64,000 nucleotides of DNA, from the sequence record OK570374. One strand, written 5' to 3'. This stretch comes from Escherichia phage UoN_LG358_1. Under the pieces are notes generated by a model. That model saw only the letters and a list, made by a program, of their open reading frames with translations. It was not told where the DNA came from and made no database searches. Positions 2,348 through 64,000 of this stretch are shown here, piece by piece. The position numbers and the translations under genes are program-made. Within the stretch, counting starts at the first letter, position 1; the number at the start of each line of letters is the position of its first letter.

Positions 2348-4324
2348 ATGGCTTTACTCTCGCCGGGCGTTGAGCTCAAAGAAACTAGTGTACAAAGCAC
2401 TATTGTTAATAATGCTACAGGCCGTGCCGCTATCGCTGGTAAATTTCAATGGGGTCCTGCATTTCAGGTAATTCAGGTAACCAATGAAGTTGAACTCGTC
2501 GATTTATTTGGTACTCCTAATAGCGAAACTGCTGATTATTTTATGTCAGCTATGAACTTCTTGCAATACGGTAATGATTTACGTGTAGCACGTGCAGTTA
2601 ATCGTGACGTGGCGAAAAACTCTTCTCCTATTGCAGAAAATATTGAAACCACAATTTCCGCGGCTGGTTCTAACTATACAGTTGGCGATGTTATCCGTGT
2701 ACGTCATAATATGGATGTAATTGAAACTGCTGGTAAAGTTACTCGTGTAGATGCTGACGGTAAAATTCTGGGAGTGTATATTCCTACTGGTAAAATTATC
2801 GCTTATGCGAAAAGTACTAACCAATATCCAGACCTAGGTCCAAACTGGACTGCAGAAATAGCTTCAAGTTCTTCTGGCGTATCTGGTACTATTACTCTTG
2901 GAAAAATTATCACTGATTCTGGTATTTTGTTAACTGAACCTGAAAATGCTTATGAAGCTATTCGTAATACCACTTTCCAGAACAATTTGAAAAAATATGG
3001 TATGCCGGGTGTAGTTGCTCTTTATCCAGGTGAAATCGGCTCTCAACTTGAAATTGAAATTGTTTCAAAAGCTACGTATGAAAAGGGCGCGGCATCTGAA
3101 CTTTCAATTTATCCAACGGGCGGAACTCGAGTTACTACCGCGCGGGCAGTATTTGGTTATGGTCCACAAACTGATGACCAATACGCGATTATTGTTCGCC
3201 GTGATGGAGCAATTGTAGAGTCAGCTGTTCTTTCAACTAAAGAAGGCGAAAAAGACATTTACGGAAATAACATCTATATGGATGATTATTTTGCCAAAGG
3301 TTCTAGTAACTATATTTTTGGAACAGCAATAGGCTGGCCTAAAGGTTTTTCTGGCATCATCAAATTGAACGGCGGCATTTCTGCGAACTCAGCTGTTACC
3401 GCAGGCGATGTAATGCAAGCATGGGATTTATTTGCTGACCGCGAAGCATTGCACGTTAACTTACTTATTGCTGGCGCGTCTGCAGGCGAAAGTTTAGAAT
3501 TTGCTTCTACTGTGCAGAAACACGTAGTTTCTATTGCCGACGAACGCCAAGATTGTCTTGCTTTAATTTCTCCTCCGCGTGAAATTATCGTAAATATTCC
3601 GTTAACTCGTGCTATTGATAACTTGGTTAACTGGCGTACAGCATCGGCAGCTTATACCGACGATAACATGAACATCAGTTCAACTTACGCATTTATTGAT
3701 GGTAACTATAAATATCAATATGATAAGTACAATGATGTTAACCGTTGGGTGCCACTTTCTGCTGATATGGCGGGTCTGTGCGCTCGTACTGATAATGTTA
3801 GTCAACCTTGGATGTCTCCAGCTGGTTATAACCGTGGTCAAATTCTGAACGTAATTAAACTAGCTGTTGAAGCTCGTCAACCGCAACGTGACCGTTTGTA
3901 TCAAGAAGCAATTAACCCGGTTACTGGCACAGGTGGTGATGGTTTTGTTCTGTTTGGCGATAAAACTGCTACCAAAGTTCCAACTCCATTTGACCGTGTT
4001 AACGTTCGTCGTTTGTTTAATATGCTGAAAACGAATATCGGTAATTCATCGAAATATCGTCTGTTTGAGATTAACGATAACTTTACTCGTTCTTCTTTCC
4101 GCATGGAAACTAGCCAGTATCTGCAGGGAATTAAAGCTCTTGGTGGTATGTATGAGTATCGCGTAGTTTGTGATACTACTAATAACACCCCATCGGTCAT
4201 CGATCGTAATGAGTTTGTTGCAAGCTTTTATGTGAAGCCCGCGAGATCGATAAATTATATTACCCTCAACTTCGTTGCAACTGCGACTGGTGCGGATTTC
4301 GACGAATTGATCGGACCGCAATAA
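2348..4324 (+). CDS. 18: contractile tail sheath protein
   Basis: 658 aa (T4 gp18 is about 659); TATAAATA box about 30 nt upstream; position after gene 17. Confidence 0.95.
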   Translation: MALLSPGVELKETSVQSTIVNNATGRAAIAGKFQWGPAFQVIQVTNEVELVDLFGTPNSETADYFMSAMNFLQYGNDLRVARAVNRDVAKNSSPIAENIETTISAAGSNYTVGDVIRVRHNMDVIETAGKVTRVDADGKILGVYIPTGKIIAYAKSTNQYPDLGPNWTAEIASSSSGVSGTITLGKIITDSGILLTEPENAYEAIRNTTFQNNLKKYGMPGVVALYPGEIGSQLEIEIVSKATYEKGAASELSIYPTGGTRVTTARAVFGYGPQTDDQYAIIVRRDGAIVESAVLSTKEGEKDIYGNNIYMDDYFAKGSSNYIFGTAIGWPKGFSGIIKLNGGISANSAVTAGDVMQAWDLFADREALHVNLLIAGASAGESLEFASTVQKHVVSIADERQDCLALISPPREIIVNIPLTRAIDNLVNWRTASAAYTDDNMNISSTYAFIDGNYKYQYDKYNDVNRWVPLSADMAGLCARTDNVSQPWMSPAGYNRGQILNVIKLAVEARQPQRDRLYQEAINPVTGTGGDGFVLFGDKTATKVPTPFDRVNVRRLFNMLKTNIGNSSKYRLFEINDNFTRSSFRMETSQYLQGIKALGGMYEYRVVCDTTNNTPSVIDRNEFVASFYVKPARSINYITLNFVATATGADFDELIGPQ

Positions 4325-55310: not shown

Positions 55311-55318
55311 TATAAATA
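55311..55318 (+). promoter_or_regulatory. late promoter box for gene 34
   Basis: TATAAATA about 30 nt upstream of the ATG at 55347. Confidence 0.7.
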
Positions 55319-55346
55319 CATTCTATAATAGCAAACAGGAGCAATC

Positions 55347-58300
55347 ATGGCCGAATTAAAACGTAAATTCAGAGCGCAAGAAGGTCTGGACGCTGCGGGT
55401 GAGAAAGTCATCAATGTTGCCAAGGCAGATCGGACGGTCATGTCTGACGGTGTTAACGTTGAATATCTCATCCAAGAAAACACATTACAACAATATGACA
55501 GCACTCGTGGTTATCCTGCGCAGTTTGCAGTCATTTATGATAACCGCATTTGGGTATCAAATCGTGAAATTCCTGAACCAGCTGGTGATTTCACCGAGCT
55601 TTACTGGAATTCCGTTCGTACTGATGCAAAATGGAAAACAGTATCGTCTGGAACCACAAATTTGAAATCAGGTGATTTTATTTCGGCTGACACTGCCGGA
55701 AGAACGGATATGAAATTTATTCTTCCAAGTAATCCGCAAGATGGTGATACAATTTTTATTAAAGATATCGGCGGTCAGCCAGGTTACGCTTCTCTTACCG
55801 TAGATGCTTCAGTTCAATCAATACTTTGGCTTGGAAAACAAGTTAGAACTGTACAGATGACGCATCCATATTCACAAATGGTTTTTGTTTTTAGCAATCG
55901 TTTGTGGCAGCTTTACATAAGTGATAATGAAAGAGTAGCAATTACTATTACTCCCGCATCTATTCATGAAGCACAAGCTAATGAATTCTTAGTTCGTCGC
56001 TATACTTCTGGCGCTCCGGTACGTGTTAAATTACCTAAGTATGCCAACAATGGTGACATGATTAATTTCACTGATTTAGATGCTATGAATCCGCAATTTC
56101 ATCTTTATGTTGATACTTATGATGAGAATACAAGCATTGGTTCAGTTGGAACTCACCAGTTAATTTCACGCACTTCAGGTGATGGATTTATAATATTCGA
56201 TGATTCTGAAAACTTGTGGCGCGTATGGGATGGTGATCTTCGTACTCGTCTTCGTATTATTCGTGAAGACACTATTGTTAGGCCTAATGACCATGTTATG
56301 GTATTTGGTGTAAATAACACTGAAGTAAAAACAGTGACTGTCACTTTACCACCAACTCCTGCAATTGGTGATACTGTAAAAATTTCTCTGAACTATATGA
56401 GAAAAGGTCAAACTGTTAATATAACTGCATCTGGCACAGATACAATTGCATCAAATGTTGCTTTACTTCAATTTCCTAAGCGTTCTGAATATCCGCCAGG
56501 AACAACTTGGGTACAAAACAAGACAATTTCATTTAATGGCGATACGTCTTATGTTCCAGTATTAGAACTATCTTACATTGAAGATAGTTCTTTAAAATAT
56601 TGGGTTATTGCTGAAAATAATCCTACAGTTGAACGAGTCGATTCAACAAGCGATTCAACCCGTAATCGTCTTGGTGTAATTGCTTTAGCTACTCAAGCTC
56701 AGGCAAACGTAGATTATGAAAATAATCCAGAAAAAGAAAGAGCTATAACTCCAGAAACTTTGGCTAATCGTATTTCTACTAAAATTCGCCGAGGTATTGC
56801 TCGTTTGGCTACTCAAGCTGAGCTTGAAGTTAAAACTGGTGGAACTCTACTTGATGACGTTATCGTTACTCCGAAAGTTTTGAATGACCGTATTGCTTTA
56901 GAAGACAGACAAGGACTTGCTGAATTAGCAACTCAGTCGGAAACTAATGATGGTGTAGACGATTCAAGAATTGTCACTCCTAAGAAACTTAATAATCGTA
57001 AAGCTTCTGAAATTTTAACTGGTATTATCGCTTTAGTAAAAACTGGTATAAGCACTTTAGCTGGTATAAATCGTGATACGAAAGGCACAAACGTATATGA
57101 CTATACTGATAATGAAAAAGCTGTAACTCCTGCTTCTTTGTTTGAAAATAAAGCTACATATACTTCGCAAGGCGGTTCTTATTTAGCTACAGAAACTGAA
57201 GTTATTCAAGGTACTCCTCATGACCCTAAAGTACCTACAGTTGTAACTCCGGTTGAATTACAAAAGAAAACTGCTACTGAAACTCGTATTGGTTTTACTG
57301 AAACTGCTACTCAAGTTGAAGTTGACGCAGGTACAGATGATTTCAGATATGTTACTCCTAAAAAATTAAATGGACGTAATGCTACTGAAACTTTAACTGG
57401 TATTTCACGAATTGCTACAGACTCTGAATTTTCAGCTGGCACATTAGATAATGTTATTTCAACTCCGTTGAAAATTAAAAATTACTTTTCTTCTGTTGCT
57501 CGTCATTCTGTTATTCCTGAATCTGGACTAGTTGAAACAGGGAACTTCTGGGACCATTATAACCTCGATATTCAAAAAGCATCTGAAACCCAACGAGGCA
57601 CACTCGCGTTGGCAACTCAGGTGTTGACTGATGCTGGTGTTGATGATACTACAGCTGTTACTCCTAAAAAGCTTCAAGCTAAAAAGACATCTGAAACTTC
57701 TGAGGGTATTATTCAAATAGCAACTCAGGCTGAGACTGTAGCTGGTATCGTTGGTAATAAAGCTGTTCCGCCAAAGCATTTGAAGTATGCTATACAGGTA
57801 CAAGCGGATTGGGAAGCAACACCTTTACGTAGAGGCCCAATTAAATTAACGGAAGGCGCATTAAGTTTTGTCGGTGATAAAGTATTTGGTTCGGGTGTTC
57901 AATTTAATGCTTTAACCGGTCTCTATGAAAACGATGATGCTAAATTAGCGTTAGGAAATTATTTCAAATCAGGTTATGCTGTATCTCCGTTTGAAATGAA
58001 CAAGACACTTCAAAACTTTTTGCCGATAAATGCAATTGCTGTTAATTCACACAAGTTAGATAATCTTGATTCAACCCAGTTCATTCGAAGAGATATCGAT
58101 CAGACAGTTGAAGGTTCTTTAACGTTAACCAAACAAACCAACACCAGTGCACCTCTAGTATCCTCTAGTACTGCGAAGTTTGTTAGTATGTTGGTTACCA
58201 CAGAAGCTACTATCGGTGACTCTACAAGTCACTCTGTGATTAATTTGGATGCGAAAACCAATAAATGGGTTATTGATGGCCAAGCTGATTCTTTATACTT

Positions 58301-59168
58301 GGATTTCACAGCAGGCGCTACTGATGTCCTTAAGCTGAAACGTGATGGTGATGTTAACGTAGCTCAAACACTTTATGCTGGAAATAAAGTAGATGCTTCT
58401 AAAGGCTTTAGCGTTGAAGGTGGTACAATGGTTATTAACCCTACCGCCACTAATATTCAAATTGGTTCTCAATCTAAAGCTACCAATATCCAAACAACGG
58501 ATGCTGGTAATTTACAAGTAACTGACCCGTCTGGCTCGTCTGTAGTTCTGACTACGAAAAACGCAATTACTATCGTCGGTAATAATTTCGTTAATAAAGC
58601 CGGAGACTCCATGTTTGGCCGATTGGATGTTTCTGCTGCTGTGAGCGCGGTTATTACTCAGGCTAAAGCTACTGGTCCTCTTACTAATGAAACGGTAGGT
58701 AGTTGGTCTTCTGAAATAATTGACCCGTTAATTTATAACACTTTGCCTGGATTTATGGTTCCGATTTATTCAGATGAAGACGGCGGGAAAGTTATAGTTG
58801 GATACGTTGATTATGACCCGGCAGATGCTTCTAAACGTGGTATAAGAGCTCCAGGTATACTGTCTCAGATTGGAACGAGTAAAAAGGAATTTACATATCA
58901 AATATGGAACCCTCGTCCAGCTACGGCTTATCCAGATGCTAAATCTTCTCTGTGGATTAGAACTTATGACCCAGTTAAAGGCGCATTTAACGAATGGGGA
59001 AGAGTTTATACTACGGAAGCACCAGTTACATCTGCTGAAATAGGAGCTGTTTCTACTGCTGGTTCTGCGTTTAATAACTTAACAATCAGAGATTGGTTAC
59101 AGATTGGTAATGTTCGTATTACTCCTAATCCTGCAACGCAATCTGTTGATTTTACTTGGGTGCCTTAA
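55347..59168 (+). CDS. 34: long tail fibre proximal subunit
   Basis: 1273 aa; late promoter; internal about 40-aa repeats (LATQ..VTPKKL). Confidence 0.9.
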   Translation: MAELKRKFRAQEGLDAAGEKVINVAKADRTVMSDGVNVEYLIQENTLQQYDSTRGYPAQFAVIYDNRIWVSNREIPEPAGDFTELYWNSVRTDAKWKTVSSGTTNLKSGDFISADTAGRTDMKFILPSNPQDGDTIFIKDIGGQPGYASLTVDASVQSILWLGKQVRTVQMTHPYSQMVFVFSNRLWQLYISDNERVAITITPASIHEAQANEFLVRRYTSGAPVRVKLPKYANNGDMINFTDLDAMNPQFHLYVDTYDENTSIGSVGTHQLISRTSGDGFIIFDDSENLWRVWDGDLRTRLRIIREDTIVRPNDHVMVFGVNNTEVKTVTVTLPPTPAIGDTVKISLNYMRKGQTVNITASGTDTIASNVALLQFPKRSEYPPGTTWVQNKTISFNGDTSYVPVLELSYIEDSSLKYWVIAENNPTVERVDSTSDSTRNRLGVIALATQAQANVDYENNPEKERAITPETLANRISTKIRRGIARLATQAELEVKTGGTLLDDVIVTPKVLNDRIALEDRQGLAELATQSETNDGVDDSRIVTPKKLNNRKASEILTGIIALVKTGISTLAGINRDTKGTNVYDYTDNEKAVTPASLFENKATYTSQGGSYLATETEVIQGTPHDPKVPTVVTPVELQKKTATETRIGFTETATQVEVDAGTDDFRYVTPKKLNGRNATETLTGISRIATDSEFSAGTLDNVISTPLKIKNYFSSVARHSVIPESGLVETGNFWDHYNLDIQKASETQRGTLALATQVLTDAGVDDTTAVTPKKLQAKKTSETSEGIIQIATQAETVAGIVGNKAVPPKHLKYAIQVQADWEATPLRRGPIKLTEGALSFVGDKVFGSGVQFNALTGLYENDDAKLALGNYFKSGYAVSPFEMNKTLQNFLPINAIAVNSHKLDNLDSTQFIRRDIDQTVEGSLTLTKQTNTSAPLVSSSTAKFVSMLVTTEATIGDSTSHSVINLDAKTNKWVIDGQADSLYLDFTAGATDVLKLKRDGDVNVAQTLYAGNKVDASKGFSVEGGTMVINPTATNIQIGSQSKATNIQTTDAGNLQVTDPSGSSVVLTTKNAITIVGNNFVNKAGDSMFGRLDVSAAVSAVITQAKATGPLTNETVGSWSSEIIDPLIYNTLPGFMVPIYSDEDGGKVIVGYVDYDPADASKRGIRAPGILSQIGTSKKEFTYQIWNPRPATAYPDAKSSLWIRTYDPVKGAFNEWGRVYTTEAPVTSAEIGAVSTAGSAFNNLTIRDWLQIGNVRITPNPATQSVDFTWVP

Positions 59169-60355
59169 TGGAAAAAATGATGGCGAGTTTTGGTAATGGA
59201 TATACCAAAACTCAAGTTATTTCTGAAAATAATTCCATCAAATACAAAATTTCATTTGCTGCGGGGTCGGTATTTTCGACCCCATCTTCTGCATATTTCA
59301 CCTTTCAGGATACTCCTATAGGTGACCAGCAAGATGGTGCTGGTATAAATGTTAGAATTTTTAACCCAGCATTGAATACTGTATCTACAAAGAAAACATT
59401 CTTATTAACGGCTAATGATGCTGATCCAGGAAATACCGCGTTTATTGATTATTTGGCATCGTTTACACAAGATAATACAAATTTGTTAATATTCACTACA
59501 TCAGGTGATATTAAAACTAGTACTTTAATAGAGAATAAATTTAAGTCAATTTATTCAACTATGTGGCCTAATAAATGGATAACTTCACGATATAGCTGTA
59601 CTTATTGCGGATTGTTTTCTATTAAAAATAACAAAATGATTGCTGAAAACGTAACTTATTCTGATGGGGTTCTTCGTGATGAAGATATAAGGCCTGCGTT
59701 AGAATTTGTTTACGATAAAGCAAATGATATAGGAGCTACCGGATTTTCTTATAGAGCGTTGGAAGATTTTAATGAATATACTAGTTCTTCTGCTACAATA
59801 AAAAGATATCCAATAGATTCAGTGTCAGGTGTAGACATTAGTACTATCGGAATAACACCAGGAGATATTCTTTTTTGGTCATTTGAATTTTTACACGGAG
59901 ACAATATGCCTCCAGAAGTACCCGGAACAAATGACAATAAAATAAGAATAGAAATAAGATGGTTGAATTCAGCTGGAAATTGGATTAAATCTGTTAACGT
60001 AGATTCTAATCATGCAAATGCTGGAAAATGGATAAAGCATGAGCAAACCGTTGAAGTTCCAGCTGACGCAGCTCGAATAGTTGTTCTTGCTTCTAAAACT
60101 ACTCCTAGCGATACTGTCGGAACAGGCGGGGTCCGCAACATGATATTAACTGAGACTTCGAGAGCAGTTGAACCAATGACTTCTCCGGCGGCAATATCGG
60201 TCAACGGAATTCGTTTGAATTCTATAGTATCCGGCACTTACCCAACATTGCTTATTTTACCAGCAAATGAATTTGATTCATCGGGTAAACCATTACCTGG
60301 CGAAGATATTTCTGGTATAATTTATAGCTCCGATTGGAGAGAGTTTGAAAAATAA
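59156..60355 (+). CDS. 35: long tail fibre hinge protein
   Basis: 399 aa; overlaps gene 34 end; terminator after stop. Confidence 0.75.
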   Translation: MGALMEKMMASFGNGYTKTQVISENNSIKYKISFAAGSVFSTPSSAYFTFQDTPIGDQQDGAGINVRIFNPALNTVSTKKTFLLTANDADPGNTAFIDYLASFTQDNTNLLIFTTSGDIKTSTLIENKFKSIYSTMWPNKWITSRYSCTYCGLFSIKNNKMIAENVTYSDGVLRDEDIRPALEFVYDKANDIGATGFSYRALEDFNEYTSSSATIKRYPIDSVSGVDISTIGITPGDILFWSFEFLHGDNMPPEVPGTNDNKIRIEIRWLNSAGNWIKSVNVDSNHANAGKWIKHEQTVEVPADAARIVVLASKTTPSDTVGTGGVRNMILTETSRAVEPMTSPAAISVNGIRLNSIVSGTYPTLLILPANEFDSSGKPLPGEDISGIIYSSDWREFEK

Positions 60356-60358
60356 TTA

Positions 60359-60379
60359 AGGGCCGCAAGGCCCTTTTTT
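60359..60379 (+). terminator. rho-independent terminator after gene 35
   Basis: AGGGCC-gcaa-GGCCCT then TTTTTT. Confidence 0.8.
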
Positions 60380-60427
60380 CTTTTATAAAATAGCAAATAA
60401 ATATGAATATACTCTAGAGGACTTCAT

Positions 60428-61093
60428 ATGGCCGATTTAAAATCAAATAGTACAGTAGGCGGAGCTCCTATATGGCATAAAGGAAATTTTCCTTTATCTC
60501 CAGTAGGTGACACTCTGCTTTATAAGACTTTTAAAGTCTACACAGAATTCGATAAACCTCAGGCAGTAGATAACGATTTTGTTTCTAAAGCTGCTGGAGG
60601 AGAATATTTAAAAAACGTTAATTTTAAAGAAGGTTTATCATTTAGTGATAAAGCTGGTGCTCCGATTTTTATTGGAGTTCCTAAAAATACCACGGCGGCA
60701 GCTACTTATACAGCATCGATAAAATTAACTGGGTCATTCGCTTTAGAAACTCCCGATAATAAGCCATTTATCATATTCAACCCAATAGAAACATTCGGTC
60801 CTGATATATACCGGTTGACTGTCATGGGTGATATGATTGCTCGTCAAATTTATGACGAATCAGGTAGAGTTTTTTCTCCAGGAAATACTCCATCTAAAGC
60901 GCAGGTCGGTTTAGGATTAGTTGATAACGCAAAACAAGTTCAACTTGAGCAATCAGCCGTACAAACAATGACAGGTGTTTTGGCTGCACCGAACTTTATA
61001 AGTACTAATCCGGCGACAGCTGATAACCACGTAGCTCGTTTTGACCAGATTGTAATAAAAGACTCAATTCAAGATTTTGGATATTATAGCTAA
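60428..61093 (+). CDS. 36: long tail fibre distal-half proximal subunit
   Basis: 221 aa, same as T4 gp36. Confidence 0.8.
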   Translation: MADLKSNSTVGGAPIWHKGNFPLSPVGDTLLYKTFKVYTEFDKPQAVDNDFVSKAAGGEYLKNVNFKEGLSFSDKAGAPIFIGVPKNTTAAATYTASIKLTGSFALETPDNKPFIIFNPIETFGPDIYRLTVMGDMIARQIYDESGRVFSPGNTPSKAQVGLGLVDNAKQVQLEQSAVQTMTGVLAAPNFISTNPATADNHVARFDQIVIKDSIQDFGYYS

Positions 61094-61101
61094 GAGGACA
61101 T

Positions 61102-63321
61102 ATGGCTACTATAAAGCAAATTCAATTTAAAAGAACAAAAGTAGCAGGCTCTCGTCCTACTGCAGCTCAACTCGCTGAAGGCGAACTTGCTATTAACTTA
61201 AAAGACCGCACTATTTTTACAAAAGATGATTTGAACCAAATTATCGATTTAGGTTTTGCTAAAGGCGGCGAAGTATCAGGAGATATCACGCAGGTTGGTA
61301 ATTATACCCAAACCGGAAATTATAATCTAACTGGTGATGCTAATGTATCTGGTAAAATTACCACCAACGCATTAGATGTCAGTACTATTTCAGACCTAAG
61401 ACAAACTAACTTTAGACCTGTATTAAGCACAACAGCGGGTTCTAATTTTATTATATCAAACTCCGGCGGTTTAATCAAACCAATTACTTTGACAGTAGAA
61501 GGAACAGCAACAAGCTCAAACACTATTCTTCGTCATACTGTTGATACTACTGTGGCTGCTAGCGGATTTATTGATTCAATTAATGTTTCTCTTAATCCCA
61601 CTGACGGGGCTCTGGTTACAGCTCTTAATGGTACGGTGAATATCGGTAGTTCCCTTAAAACTCCTAAACTTTCTGTTTCCGGCGCCGAAACTATTTTAGG
61701 AGATTATAGCATTTCAATCGGTGATAATGATACCGGATTTAGATGGTCTTCTGATGGAATATTCAATACAGTAACTAATGGAACTTCGATTTACACTCAT
61801 TCTAATGGGATTACTTATTCTAACCGTCCAACACATTTCCGCTATACATCAGATAATGATGCTATGACGCCAACCGCCGTGTTTGATGGCGGTTATTTAG
61901 CTTTGGTAGATACTTCCACTGATGGCAATGCTTATGGCGACGCAATGAGCTATCTCGGTTATAAAGATGCTGCTGGTTATAGTTTTTATTTCCGTGGCGG
62001 TGGAACATTTAATGTAGCTTCTAAAGGCGGATTTAATGTAGATACAGCTGCTGCTTTTTCCAAAACGGTTGATGTATCTGATATTCTAACATGCAGCTCT
62101 ATTATTAAAGCTAAAGGCCCAGGTCAAGTTGACGTTACTAGTGCTGGTAATATTGCACTTGGCGGAACTATTCAATGGGTGCCTTCGTATATGAGCGGAA
62201 GCCCAAGTAAAGCACGAGATACTATAGCTATGGCGGCGTGGGGCGATGGGGCGCAACGAGTAAACGTACTTGAGACATCTGATTCATCTGGCTGGTGGTA
62301 TTATATTCAGCGAGCGTCTCCTAGTATTTCTCCTACCGGTGTAGAAGGTCGTATTAACGGGACGTGGCAAGCTTCAGATTTAATTTCTGATAATACTCTT
62401 AAAGTGGCAGGAGCTTTCACCTGCACTAGAAGAAACTCAGCGTCATGGGGTGATAACGCTGGATGGTATGCAGGAGCAACTCCTGTTGTAGTTAATCAAG
62501 GAAACATCCAAGAAATGGACCCGGGCGTAGGAGGTTTTTATCCTGGATTTGCCCAATATAACGTGAATGGAACCGGATGGAAACAAGCGTTTATGCTAGG
62601 TTTATTAGGTCAAGGTGTACAAAGATGGCGGCGAGGAGTATTAGCTCTTAGAGGTGATGGTCCCGTTGATGCTGGACAACAAATAGCACGTTGGTATTTT
62701 AGTCAAGAAGACGGAAGTTTAGAATCAGAAGGTCCACTGAAAGCTCCTAGCGTTCAGGCCGGTCAAATAACATCTTTTGGTGTGAACGTTACAAACGCGT
62801 TAGGTAGTGCGTCTATAGCCATTGGCGATAATGATAGCGGGTTGCGCTGGGTCAGTGACGGTATTATACAACTTATGGCGAATGGAGGACCTGTTGCAAC
62901 ATGGGATTCGGGTTCATTTTATACGGCAGAGGGAAAAGGGCTTTCATCTAACGGAGCAATGTGGTGCCGCGATAACTTAGACGTCAATGATGTTTATATT
63001 CGTTCTGACATTAGAGCTAAATCAAATATCAAACTGATTGAAAATGCTCAAGAAAAATCTAAGAAATTAGGCGGTTACACTTATCTGCTGAAAAACACTG
63101 AATCTGGTGAAATAAAACCTTCTGCTGGATTGATAGCTCAAGAAGTTCAAGATGTTTTACCTGAGTTGGTCACTAAAGACAAAGACACTGGGTATTTGCG
63201 TCTGAACTATAACGGTATTATTGGTTTAAATACTGCTACAATCAACGAACATACAGATGAAATTAATTCACTTAAATCTGAAATCGCTGAACTTAAAGCA
63301 CTTATTAAATCATTAATGTAA
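61102..63321 (+). CDS. 37: long tail fibre distal subunit with C-terminal intramolecular chaperone domain
   Basis: 739 aa; N-terminus MATIKQIQFKR.. matches T4 gp37; C-terminal ..YIRSDIRAKSNI..GGYTY..GLIAQEVQDVLPELV.. resembles the autocleaving chaperone domain (T2-type organisation). Confidence 0.85.
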   Translation: MATIKQIQFKRTKVAGSRPTAAQLAEGELAINLKDRTIFTKDDLNQIIDLGFAKGGEVSGDITQVGNYTQTGNYNLTGDANVSGKITTNALDVSTISDLRQTNFRPVLSTTAGSNFIISNSGGLIKPITLTVEGTATSSNTILRHTVDTTVAASGFIDSINVSLNPTDGALVTALNGTVNIGSSLKTPKLSVSGAETILGDYSISIGDNDTGFRWSSDGIFNTVTNGTSIYTHSNGITYSNRPTHFRYTSDNDAMTPTAVFDGGYLALVDTSTDGNAYGDAMSYLGYKDAAGYSFYFRGGGTFNVASKGGFNVDTAAAFSKTVDVSDILTCSSIIKAKGPGQVDVTSAGNIALGGTIQWVPSYMSGSPSKARDTIAMAAWGDGAQRVNVLETSDSSGWWYYIQRASPSISPTGVEGRINGTWQASDLISDNTLKVAGAFTCTRRNSASWGDNAGWYAGATPVVVNQGNIQEMDPGVGGFYPGFAQYNVNGTGWKQAFMLGLLGQGVQRWRRGVLALRGDGPVDAGQQIARWYFSQEDGSLESEGPLKAPSVQAGQITSFGVNVTNALGSASIAIGDNDSGLRWVSDGIIQLMANGGPVATWDSGSFYTAEGKGLSSNGAMWCRDNLDVNDVYIRSDIRAKSNIKLIENAQEKSKKLGGYTYLLKNTESGEIKPSAGLIAQEVQDVLPELVTKDKDTGYLRLNYNGIIGLNTATINEHTDEINSLKSEIAELKALIKSLM

Positions 63322-63324
63322 TAA

Positions 63325-63340
63325 AGGGCCTTCGGGCCCT
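63325..63340 (+). other. hairpin between genes 37 and 38
   Basis: AGGGCC-ttcg-GGCCCT followed directly by GGAGG and the gene 38 ATG; no T-run. Confidence 0.45.
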
Positions 63341-63350
63341 GGAGGTTATT

Positions 63351-64000
63351 ATGGCAGTTGTAGGAATTCCAGGAAATATAGGGTCATCCGCCAAGGCAGA
63401 AACAGGACAAGCAAGCATGTCAGCTGCTGCGGTACAATTAAGACTACCTGCTACCGATGTATGGATGTCGCAATTTGCTGGTCTCTCTAAAGAAGAAATT
63501 TGGGAATGGACTGGTCCAAATCACAGTTTTAATAAAGATTGGTTAATAGGCGAACTTCGTAATAGAGGCGGTACTCCTGTGGTAATTAATATAAGAGCTG
63601 ACCAGGTTTCGCATACAGCAGGAGTTCCCTTGTTTGAATTTCCTGGAGACCTTCCAAACGCGTATGTTACACTCAACATTTATGCTACTATATACGGTAG
63701 AGGCGGTAATGGAGGAGGTCGCGGTAATGGAGATAAAGGCGGCGATTGTATTCATAACTGGATAGGGAATCGGTTAAGAATTAATAACCAAGGATGGATA
63801 TGCGGCGGTGGCGGCGGCGGCGGCGGGTCATATTGGGACCCAGGTTGGGGAAATCCGCAATACGGAGCCGGTGGTGGCGGCAGACCATTTGGTGTAGCTC
63901 CTTGGACTAATTTTAATACCCCAGCAACCAATGGTACACTCGAAGCGCCAGGCCATGGTTCAAGAGGAGGCAACTTTGGCGGTGGCGACGGTGGTCAGAC
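63351..64000 (+). CDS. 38: tail fibre adhesin with glycine-rich motifs (partial, runs off window)
   Basis: Not in track (no stop in window); GGAGG RBS then ATG 63351; MAVVGIPG.., GRGGNGGGRGNGDKGG, CGGGGGGGGSYWDPGWGNPQYGAGGGGRPFG. Confidence 0.75.
   Translation, partial: MAVVGIPGNIGSSAKAETGQASMSAAAVQLRLPATDVWMSQFAGLSKEEIWEWTGPNHSFNKDWLIGELRNRGGTPVVINIRADQVSHTAGVPLFEFPGDLPNAYVTLNIYATIYGRGGNGGGRGNGDKGGDCIHNWIGNRLRINNQGWICGGGGGGGGSYWDPGWGNPQYGAGGGGRPFGVAPWTNFNTPATNGTLEAPGHGSRGGNFGGGDGGQ
63803..63826 (+). repeat. GGC/GGT triplet tract encoding a poly-glycine run in gene 38
   Basis: gcggcggtggcggcggcggcggcggg coding for GGGGGGGG. Confidence 0.6.

Follow-up and report, generated by a model that had tools for sequence, protein, structure and literature searches.

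We analysed a stretch of 64,000 nucleotides of sequence record OK570374 (Escherichia phage UoN_LG358_1), hereafter called the window, which ends inside gene 38. Judging from its sequence, the end of the window very probably encodes the distal, host-recognising part of a long-tail-fibre operon, g34-g38, belonging to a T-even phage that resembles S16 (genus Gelderlandvirus), a reading to which we give a probability of about 0.93. An initial annotation had proposed that the 739-residue gp37 ends in an autocleaving-type intramolecular chaperone followed by a coiled coil, unlike the gp37 of T4, and that the next gene, cut by the window end, encodes a T2-type gp38 adhesin with poly-glycine motifs. 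These proposals were borne out by profile and structure matches, the C-terminus of gp37 and the gp38 fragment being homologous to the two components of the S16 tip complex (PDB 6F45), whose structure was reportedly described by Dunne et al. in 2018.

The genes g34, g35, g36, g37 and g38 follow each other in this order on the + strand over the last 9 kb of the window, and each was assigned by its PHROG family. When positions 40000-64000 were compared with other genomes, the closest was that of phage STP4-a (93.5% identity over 24 kb), followed by those of CGG4-1, S16, Melville and others. Since the nearest genomes belong to Gelderlandvirus phages (STP4-a, CGG4-1, S16), the window originates from this genus. 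An exact look-up of the gp37 protein returned no entry, and a 40-nt stretch from the variable part of g37 gave no hit in viral, genome and metagenome contigs.

The gp38 adhesin and its glycine run

The gene 38 fragment matched the GP38 adhesin family (PF05268, 186 bits) and the Gp38_N attachment domain (PF21721, 54.4 bits), the cut-off being 25 in both cases, as well as phrog_2056 ("tail fiber protein; host specificity", E 6e-79). Residues 10-215 matched S16 gp38 in the tip structure (6f45_D, E 3e-78), and the two proteins are 68% identical. S16 gp38 is a monomer. Its attachment domain has three helices, its second part is a beta-helix, and in the third part ten glycine-rich motifs (GRMs) build a polyglycine-II sandwich of three layers; its receptor-binding loops are the hypervariable segments located between these motifs (PMC6851490). 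According to the literature, the gp38 of S16 and of T2-type phages is present in the virion at the fibre tip, where it binds the receptor. All these elements (attachment domain, beta-helix, glycine-rich motifs and loops) could be aligned in the window protein. The motifs GRGGNGGG, GDKGG, GGGGGGGG, GAGGGGRPFG, PGHGSRGGN and GGGDGG were recovered in alignment with S16, T6 and M1, and the variability of gp38 was restricted to the segments between them.

The reading frame of gene 38 remains open up to the last base of the window, as initially annotated, and the layout of the full-length protein was checked by proxy with STP4-a, whose gene 38 differs at 1 nt in 650 and encodes the same 216 residues without any difference (100% identity). 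The STP4-a gp38 (gp241) is 259 residues long and could be aligned over its entire length with the adhesins of S16, T6 and M1, the remaining glycine-rich motifs among the aligned parts, so that this close proxy contradicts a full-length gene 38 devoid of adhesin organisation. It also carries the conserved C-terminal segment (..GGAAG.AV.G..P.W...G.I.G.., in STP4-a GGGASGHAVVGTSPQWINTGNIAGPWL), whose place in the present phage lies beyond the window end. Because the region 62931-64000 differs from STP4-a by a single base, the missing 3' end of gene 38 is almost certainly that of STP4-a, which would give a 259-residue adhesin with the full organisation.

The initial annotation had also described a GGC/GGT triplet tract at 63803..63826 and supposed that it could expand or contract by slippage. 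The tract itself is real, as Tandem Repeats Finder reported a period-3 array at 63802-63826 (8.3 copies, 90% match), although the position given was off by one base with respect to the glycine codons (Table 1). The corresponding gp38 residues 152-159 (GGGGGGGG) align exactly with S16 151-GGGGGGGG-158, so that this motif, GRM3, consists of eight glycines in both phages. In S16 it is helix 3, the central polyglycine-II helix, whose backbone hydrogen bonds to its neighbours are saturated (PMC6851490). Individual GRMs were found to be essential by deletion analysis in T6 (PMC3157838), and the conserved glycine-coding stretches have classically been proposed to serve as recombination linkers (PMC12032242; PMC3157838).

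One could imagine that this (GGC)5-containing tract is a contingency locus, in which slippage would alter the number of glycines in gp38 and thereby either tune the range of hosts or turn the adhesin on or off. The tract is indeed a true period-3 repeat, it is more homogeneous in the window and in STP4-a (five consecutive GGC in each) than in relatives, and the glycine run varies from about 6 to 9 over the whole gp38 family. However, most of 97 homologue clusters have 7-9 glycines and the number is constant within each sequence type. We compared five genes at the DNA level, those of the window, STP4-a, CGG4-1 and STML-198 and that of a less closely related gp38 on a 172,733-bp IMG/VR contig (L004). 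Eight glycines were present in all five, with differing codon strings (e.g., GGA GGC GGC GGT GGT GGC GGT GGT), and this conservation despite synonymous changes thus argues for selection on the length of the protein and not on the DNA repeat. In ten clusters grouped at 90% identity or more, 115 full-length gp38s were read and no indel was detected in GRM3; the length differences in these proteins corresponded to a 2-residue difference between two types of N-terminal module, to start-codon calls or to one variable loop. An on/off switch is moreover impossible because triplet changes preserve the reading frame. The saturated bonding of the central helix and the essential character of individual GRMs in T6 also speak against a variable tract, and we thus consider a contingency locus very unlikely. 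The supposed slippage was rejected on comparative grounds (constant count, differing codons, no indels).

The gp37 chaperone and the docking of gp38

The gp37 protein matched phrog_1699 ("long tail fiber protein distal subunit", E 7e-185) and is about 87% identical at the amino-acid level to STP4-a gp240 in a pairwise alignment. It contains DVYIRSDIRAKSNI, GGYTY and GLIAQEVQDVLPELV and terminates in INEHTDEINSLKSEIAELKALIKSLM. Its C-terminal part was recognised by the Pfam profile PF13884 (Peptidase_S74, "chaperone of endosialidase") with 51.9 bits for a gathering cut-off of 22, the match covering the whole profile (1-58/58) and residues 635-691 of 739. Residues 565-738 matched chain A of PDB 6F45, the S16 gp37 tip construct (E 2e-42). 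Considering that the Pfam scores of both gp37 and gp38 lie far over the curated cut-offs and that the E values of the PDB matches are as low as 3e-78 and 2e-42, these domain matches are not due to chance.

The Ser-Lys dyad of this domain is in place, the lysine being located five residues past the serine (S635-D-I-R-A-K640) and the segment aligning with S-D-R-R-I-K of S16. A search performed with the last 115 residues of gp37 also retrieved the S74 domain of human MYRF (7dc3), with S635 and K640 falling on the dyad positions. The MYRF chain 7dc3 exhibits A at the serine position, presumably an engineered substitution. Residues 714-739 contain about 3.5 heptads, with I at the a positions (714, 721, 728 and 735) and H, L, L and L at the d positions (717, 724, 731 and 738). 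They align with the C-terminal helix of the S16 gp37 construct and form a probable trimeric coiled coil.

In S16, the last 113 residues of gp37 are autocleaved after trimerisation at DLNVS^SDRRIKK, exposing the surface on which gp38 docks (PMC7917993; PMC7289586). Cleavage has been likewise predicted for tips with the motif DVYIR^SD, including DVYIR^SDGRLK of the fPS phages (PMC7917993), and the proteolytic processing of T2/T6 gp37 followed by its capping by gp38 has long been known (PMC3157838). Since the window reads DVYIR^SDIRAK, like these predicted-cleaved tips, the mature fibre should end at R634. By analogy with the homologues, cleavage at R634^S635 would release a chaperone of 105 residues.

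Could gp38 instead be a T4-type assembly chaperone, absent from the finished fibre, with gp37 itself binding the receptor? Some records do name homologues "long tail fiber assembly chaperone" or "distal long tail fiber assembly catalyst", but these names were carried over from T4. Its profile matches place the protein in the adhesin family PF05268, with a Gp38_N attachment domain, and its homologue in S16 was crystallised on the gp37 tip (PMC6851490). In addition, gp37 bears its own intramolecular chaperone and would thus not depend on a T4-type gp38 for folding. Its tip is homologous by sequence to the S16 tip that docks gp38, whereas the adhesin of T4 gp37 is its own C-terminal extension (PMC3157838). 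A role of gp38 as assembly chaperone is thus extremely improbable. It is just as hard to believe that the S74 domain is a degenerate, uncleaved remnant staying on the fibre. Although cleavage in this phage is a prediction from sequence, the profile is matched over its whole length with a score over double the gathering cut-off, and both dyad residues, Ser635 and Lys640, occur at their aligned positions. STP4-a, a viable phage with a broad host range, has a 100% identical domain, and the VR5 coliphage chaperone departs from it at about 11 of 105 residues. The docking of S16 gp38 needs a cleaved tip (PMC7917993).

We thus favour a fibre tip in which gp37 is matured by its own chaperone and capped by a gp38 adhesin. 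In this scheme, gp37 would be made as a 739-residue precursor whose last 105 residues (635-739), acting as an S74-type chaperone, would bring three chains into register via the heptad helix and the core and would nucleate the folding of the trimeric beta-helical tip. Ser635, with the help of Lys640, would then cut the R634-S635 bond and free the chaperone, baring a flat tip whose chains terminate in ...NLDVNDVYIR. A single gp38 would dock on this cleaved tip via its small three-helix N-terminal domain (residues 1-43), the remainder of the protein forming a beta-helix and a polyglycine-II sandwich made by the glycine-rich motifs. The eight-glycine run would be the central helix of this sandwich, a structural element of fixed length rather than a variable one, and the variable loops between the motifs would touch a receptor on the Salmonella outer membrane. 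The 1:3 stoichiometry of gp38 docking on gp37 and the class of the receptor are proposed here by analogy with the homologues.

Nothing contradicts this assignment, but some observations limit it. Two of the three tryptophans presumed to form the "prongs" of the attachment domain are replaced, so that the three-tryptophan trait is lacking: the presumed prong columns read N9, S22 and W38 (codons 63375-63377, 63414-63416 and 63462-63464), and with N9 and S22 the docking geometry may differ in detail from that of S16. We took these columns to be S16 W7, W20 and W36 from the S16 sequence and from a published description that gives no residue list (PMC6851490). Furthermore, the last 43 codons of gene 38 lie outside the window, its 3' end being deduced from STP4-a, and the receptor of STP4-a-type gp38 has been deduced from S16 only (PMC7597861).

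The tryptophan trait appears to be variable in the family. The three columns read W/W/W in 72 of the 97 homologue clusters, the minority patterns including NWW, RAR, YYY, WWY and RRK, with a tendency of the residues to change together (RAR, YYY, RRK); CGG4-1 and CF-SP2 have N, W and W. The trait is thus common but not universal, and its absence is compatible with membership in the family. As STP4-a is a viable phage with a broad host range (PMC7597861), the N9/S22/W38 arrangement is evidently functional. One may speculate, with a small chance of being right, that a gp38 with a single tryptophan docks on the threefold gp37 tip in one fixed orientation, or more weakly than S16 gp38, and that together with the breakpoint at 62931 it defines a minimal portable cassette of tip, chaperone and adhesin with its own docking rules. 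If so, the adhesin would be more readily exchangeable, or the azimuth of its aromatic-rich receptor loops would be set. A weaker alternative to this idea is that the unusually pure (GGC)5 run yields rare variants in glycine number.

A cassette shared with STP4-a and its genomic setting

The similarity between the window and STP4-a (KJ000058 / NC_026607; STP4a_240 for gp37, STP4a_241 for gp38) changes abruptly within gene 37. In sliding windows of 200 columns, identity was 66-95.5% over 55347-62941 and 99.5-100% from 62942 onward, and the last mismatch upstream of the nearly identical block (Table 1) is at 62930. This block takes in the final 24 codons of mature gp37 and the chaperone domain, then the intergenic hairpin and gene 38 as far as the window reaches. 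The two phages thus have the same tip cassette, 1 nt apart, whereas DNA identity is only 66-95% in g34-g36 and in the remainder of gp37. The gp37 proteins have 739 residues here and 740 in STP4-a, with many substitutions at residues 60-610, and the window comes from a different phage. This pattern in the aligned sequences indicates that 62931-64000 is a host-range cassette recently shared or exchanged between otherwise diverged Gelderlandviruses.

Table 1. Features of the long-tail-fibre region of the window.
Feature	Position	Strand	Remarks
g34	55347-59168	+	1273 aa; ORF (open reading frame) list, PHROG family agrees
g35	59156-60355	+	ORF list, PHROG family agrees
g36	60428-61093	+	ORF list, PHROG family agrees
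Gene 37, long tail fibre distal subunit precursor	61102-63321	+	ATG ORF, 739 aa
Block near-identical to STP4-a	62931-64000	+	1 mismatch (63569) in 1070 nt, 99.9% identity
Predicted autocleavage site R634^S635	63001-63006	+	Codons CGT TCT; DVYIR^SDIRAK aligned with S16 DLNVS^SDRRIKK
Peptidase_S74 / intramolecular chaperone core	63004-63174	+	Residues 635-691; PF13884, Pfam
Lys640 codon	63019-63021	+	Inside the Peptidase_S74 core
C-terminal heptad-repeat helix of the chaperone	63241-63318	+	Residues 714-739; direct reading
RNA hairpin A-GGGCC-UUCG-GGCCC-U	63325-63340	+	Present in the minimum-free-energy fold
Gene 38 (cut by the window end)	63351-64000	+	ATG; 216 codons + 2 nt (650 nt), expected 259 codons
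gp38 N-terminal attachment domain	63351-63479	+	Residues 1-43, PF21721
GRM3 glycine codons	63804-63827	+	GGC GGT GGC GGC GGC GGC GGC GGG, residues 152-159; DNA triplet repeat 63802-63827

Two types of junction between gp37 and gp38 were observed, both of them occurring within the genus Gelderlandvirus. In the window, STP4-a and CGG4-1 (type B), the motif DVYIR^SD is followed by a 105-residue chaperone and by a gp38 starting with MAVVGIPGNIG, whereas S16, SEA1 and STML-198 (type A) have DLNVS^SD, a 113-residue chaperone and a gp38 starting with MAVQGPWVG. The gene 38 of SEA1 (locus L006, 3278-4051) is chimeric. The S16 type is seen in the gp37 chaperone before it and in its initial 40-50 codons, but the body of its gp38 shares 93-100% identity with the window from about 63467 onward and 97-100% from about 63617. 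Because SEA1 combines an S16-type junction with a window-like body, a second exchange point lies inside gene 38, just past the attachment domain. The type of the gp37 tip and that of the gp38 N-terminal domain were always found together, which is what docking compatibility predicts, and experiments with PP01/T2 chimeras agree with such compatibility (PMC12892980).

The region 62968-63370 of the window, which codes for the chaperone and for the very start of gp38, shares about 79% DNA identity with many T-even phages of E. coli and Shigella belonging to other genera (e.g., VR5 and AlbertHofmann), whereas no DNA similarity to these phages was detected in the flanking fibre sequence. This conserved island could serve as a recombination linker.

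The spacer between the stop of g37 (63321) and the ATG of g38 (63351), which lies directly downstream of the chaperone-bearing gp37, has 29 nt and contains the hairpin. The gene 38 Shine-Dalgarno sequence GGAGG (63341-63345) is located directly 3' of this hairpin, six bases before the ATG at 63351. S16 (locus L005, about 3752-3770) and STML-198 have the hairpin GAGCC-UACG-GGCUC, in which a G:C to A:U change in the stem is compensated and the UNCG loop is kept. The minimum-free-energy z-score of the 61-nt region with the hairpin (-1.0) is unremarkable. We ruled out an intrinsic terminator, as the hairpin is not followed by a U-run; it may be an element of mRNA stability or of translation.

The canonical T4-type late promoter motif TATAAATA was found near the fibre genes only at 55311-55318, 29 nt upstream of g34, and occurs 17 times in the window compared with 8 in shuffled sequences (about twofold). 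A scan of 55319-64000 recovered no such motif, hence no internal late promoter for g38. The absence of TATAAATA between g34 and the window end suggests that g34-g38 would be read as one late transcript. The g35 gene as listed has a TTG start and overlaps the end of g34 by 13 nt (59156-59168). The annotation of STP4-a places the beginning of g35 at the stop codon of g34, in an ATGA-type overlap, and the true start of g35 in the window is thus probably an ATG a few codons downstream (MEKMM...). Minus-strand ORFs over 63521-63973 were disregarded as genes, being mirror images of the glycine codons of gene 38. One of 73 residues (63752-63973), with a poly-proline run, is likewise the reverse complement of these codons, a composition artefact and not a gene.

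Relation to other phage fibre tips

A close structural counterpart is the (gp37)3-gp38 tip of S16 (PDB 6F45), in which gp37 is likewise short, with a tip folded as a beta-helix and an autocleaving chaperone at its C-terminus, and is followed by a monomeric gp38 (PMC6851490); the same features are read here from sequence. Apart from the junction type, the gp38 of the window differs from that of S16 by having N9 and S22 where S16 has tryptophans, and by longer, aromatic-rich loops (SYWDPGWGNPQY, APWTNFNTPATN; FRVGHTEA in S16). Given these longer and aromatic-rich loops, receptor specificity may here differ from OmpC.

The T2/T6-type phages (Dhakavirus VR5, T6 and the fPS Yersinia phages) have the DVYIR^SD motif and the gp38 family in common with the window, and VR5 and many other coliphages encode nearly the same chaperone. 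In contrast, their gp37 is much longer (1086 residues in VR5) with an unrelated shaft, and the bodies of their gp38 are only about 50-55% identical to that of the window. Outside T-even phages, the same Pfam S74 domain, with the Ser-Lys dyad followed by a helical trimerisation segment, is found in K1F endosialidase tailspikes, in the L-shaped fibre of T5 and in MYRF (PMC7289586). Here, the domain is instead carried by the beta-helix of a T-even long fibre, and its release would create a dock for a separate adhesin, not a stand-alone receptor-binding protein.

In T4, gp37 and gp38 have the same genomic position and the proximal fibre parts g34-g36 are the same. The T4 gp37 is 1026 residues long. 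Unlike the protein of the window, it bears receptor binding in its own C-terminal extension (PMC3157838), and T4 gp38, very different in sequence, is a folding and assembly chaperone that stays outside the finished fibre (PMC6851490; PMC3157838).

The arrangement at the end of the window is thus a textbook fibre tip of the S16/T2 type and adds no new biology: the architecture has been solved (PDB 6F45), the logic of cleavage has been described and the adhesin sequence is already in GenBank through STP4-a. Its modest value lies in a clean natural exchange of a cassette, with a block of at least 1.07 kb that starts 24 codons before the autocleavage site while the neighbouring fibre genes are 5-34% diverged. 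The STP4-a block and the SEA1 chimera speak for a joint transfer of the tip of gp37, its chaperone and the attachment domain of gp38, whereas the gp38 body that binds the receptor can be replaced on its own. This gp37 tip/gp38 module decides the adsorption range of T-even phages and is being re-engineered for diagnostics and therapy.

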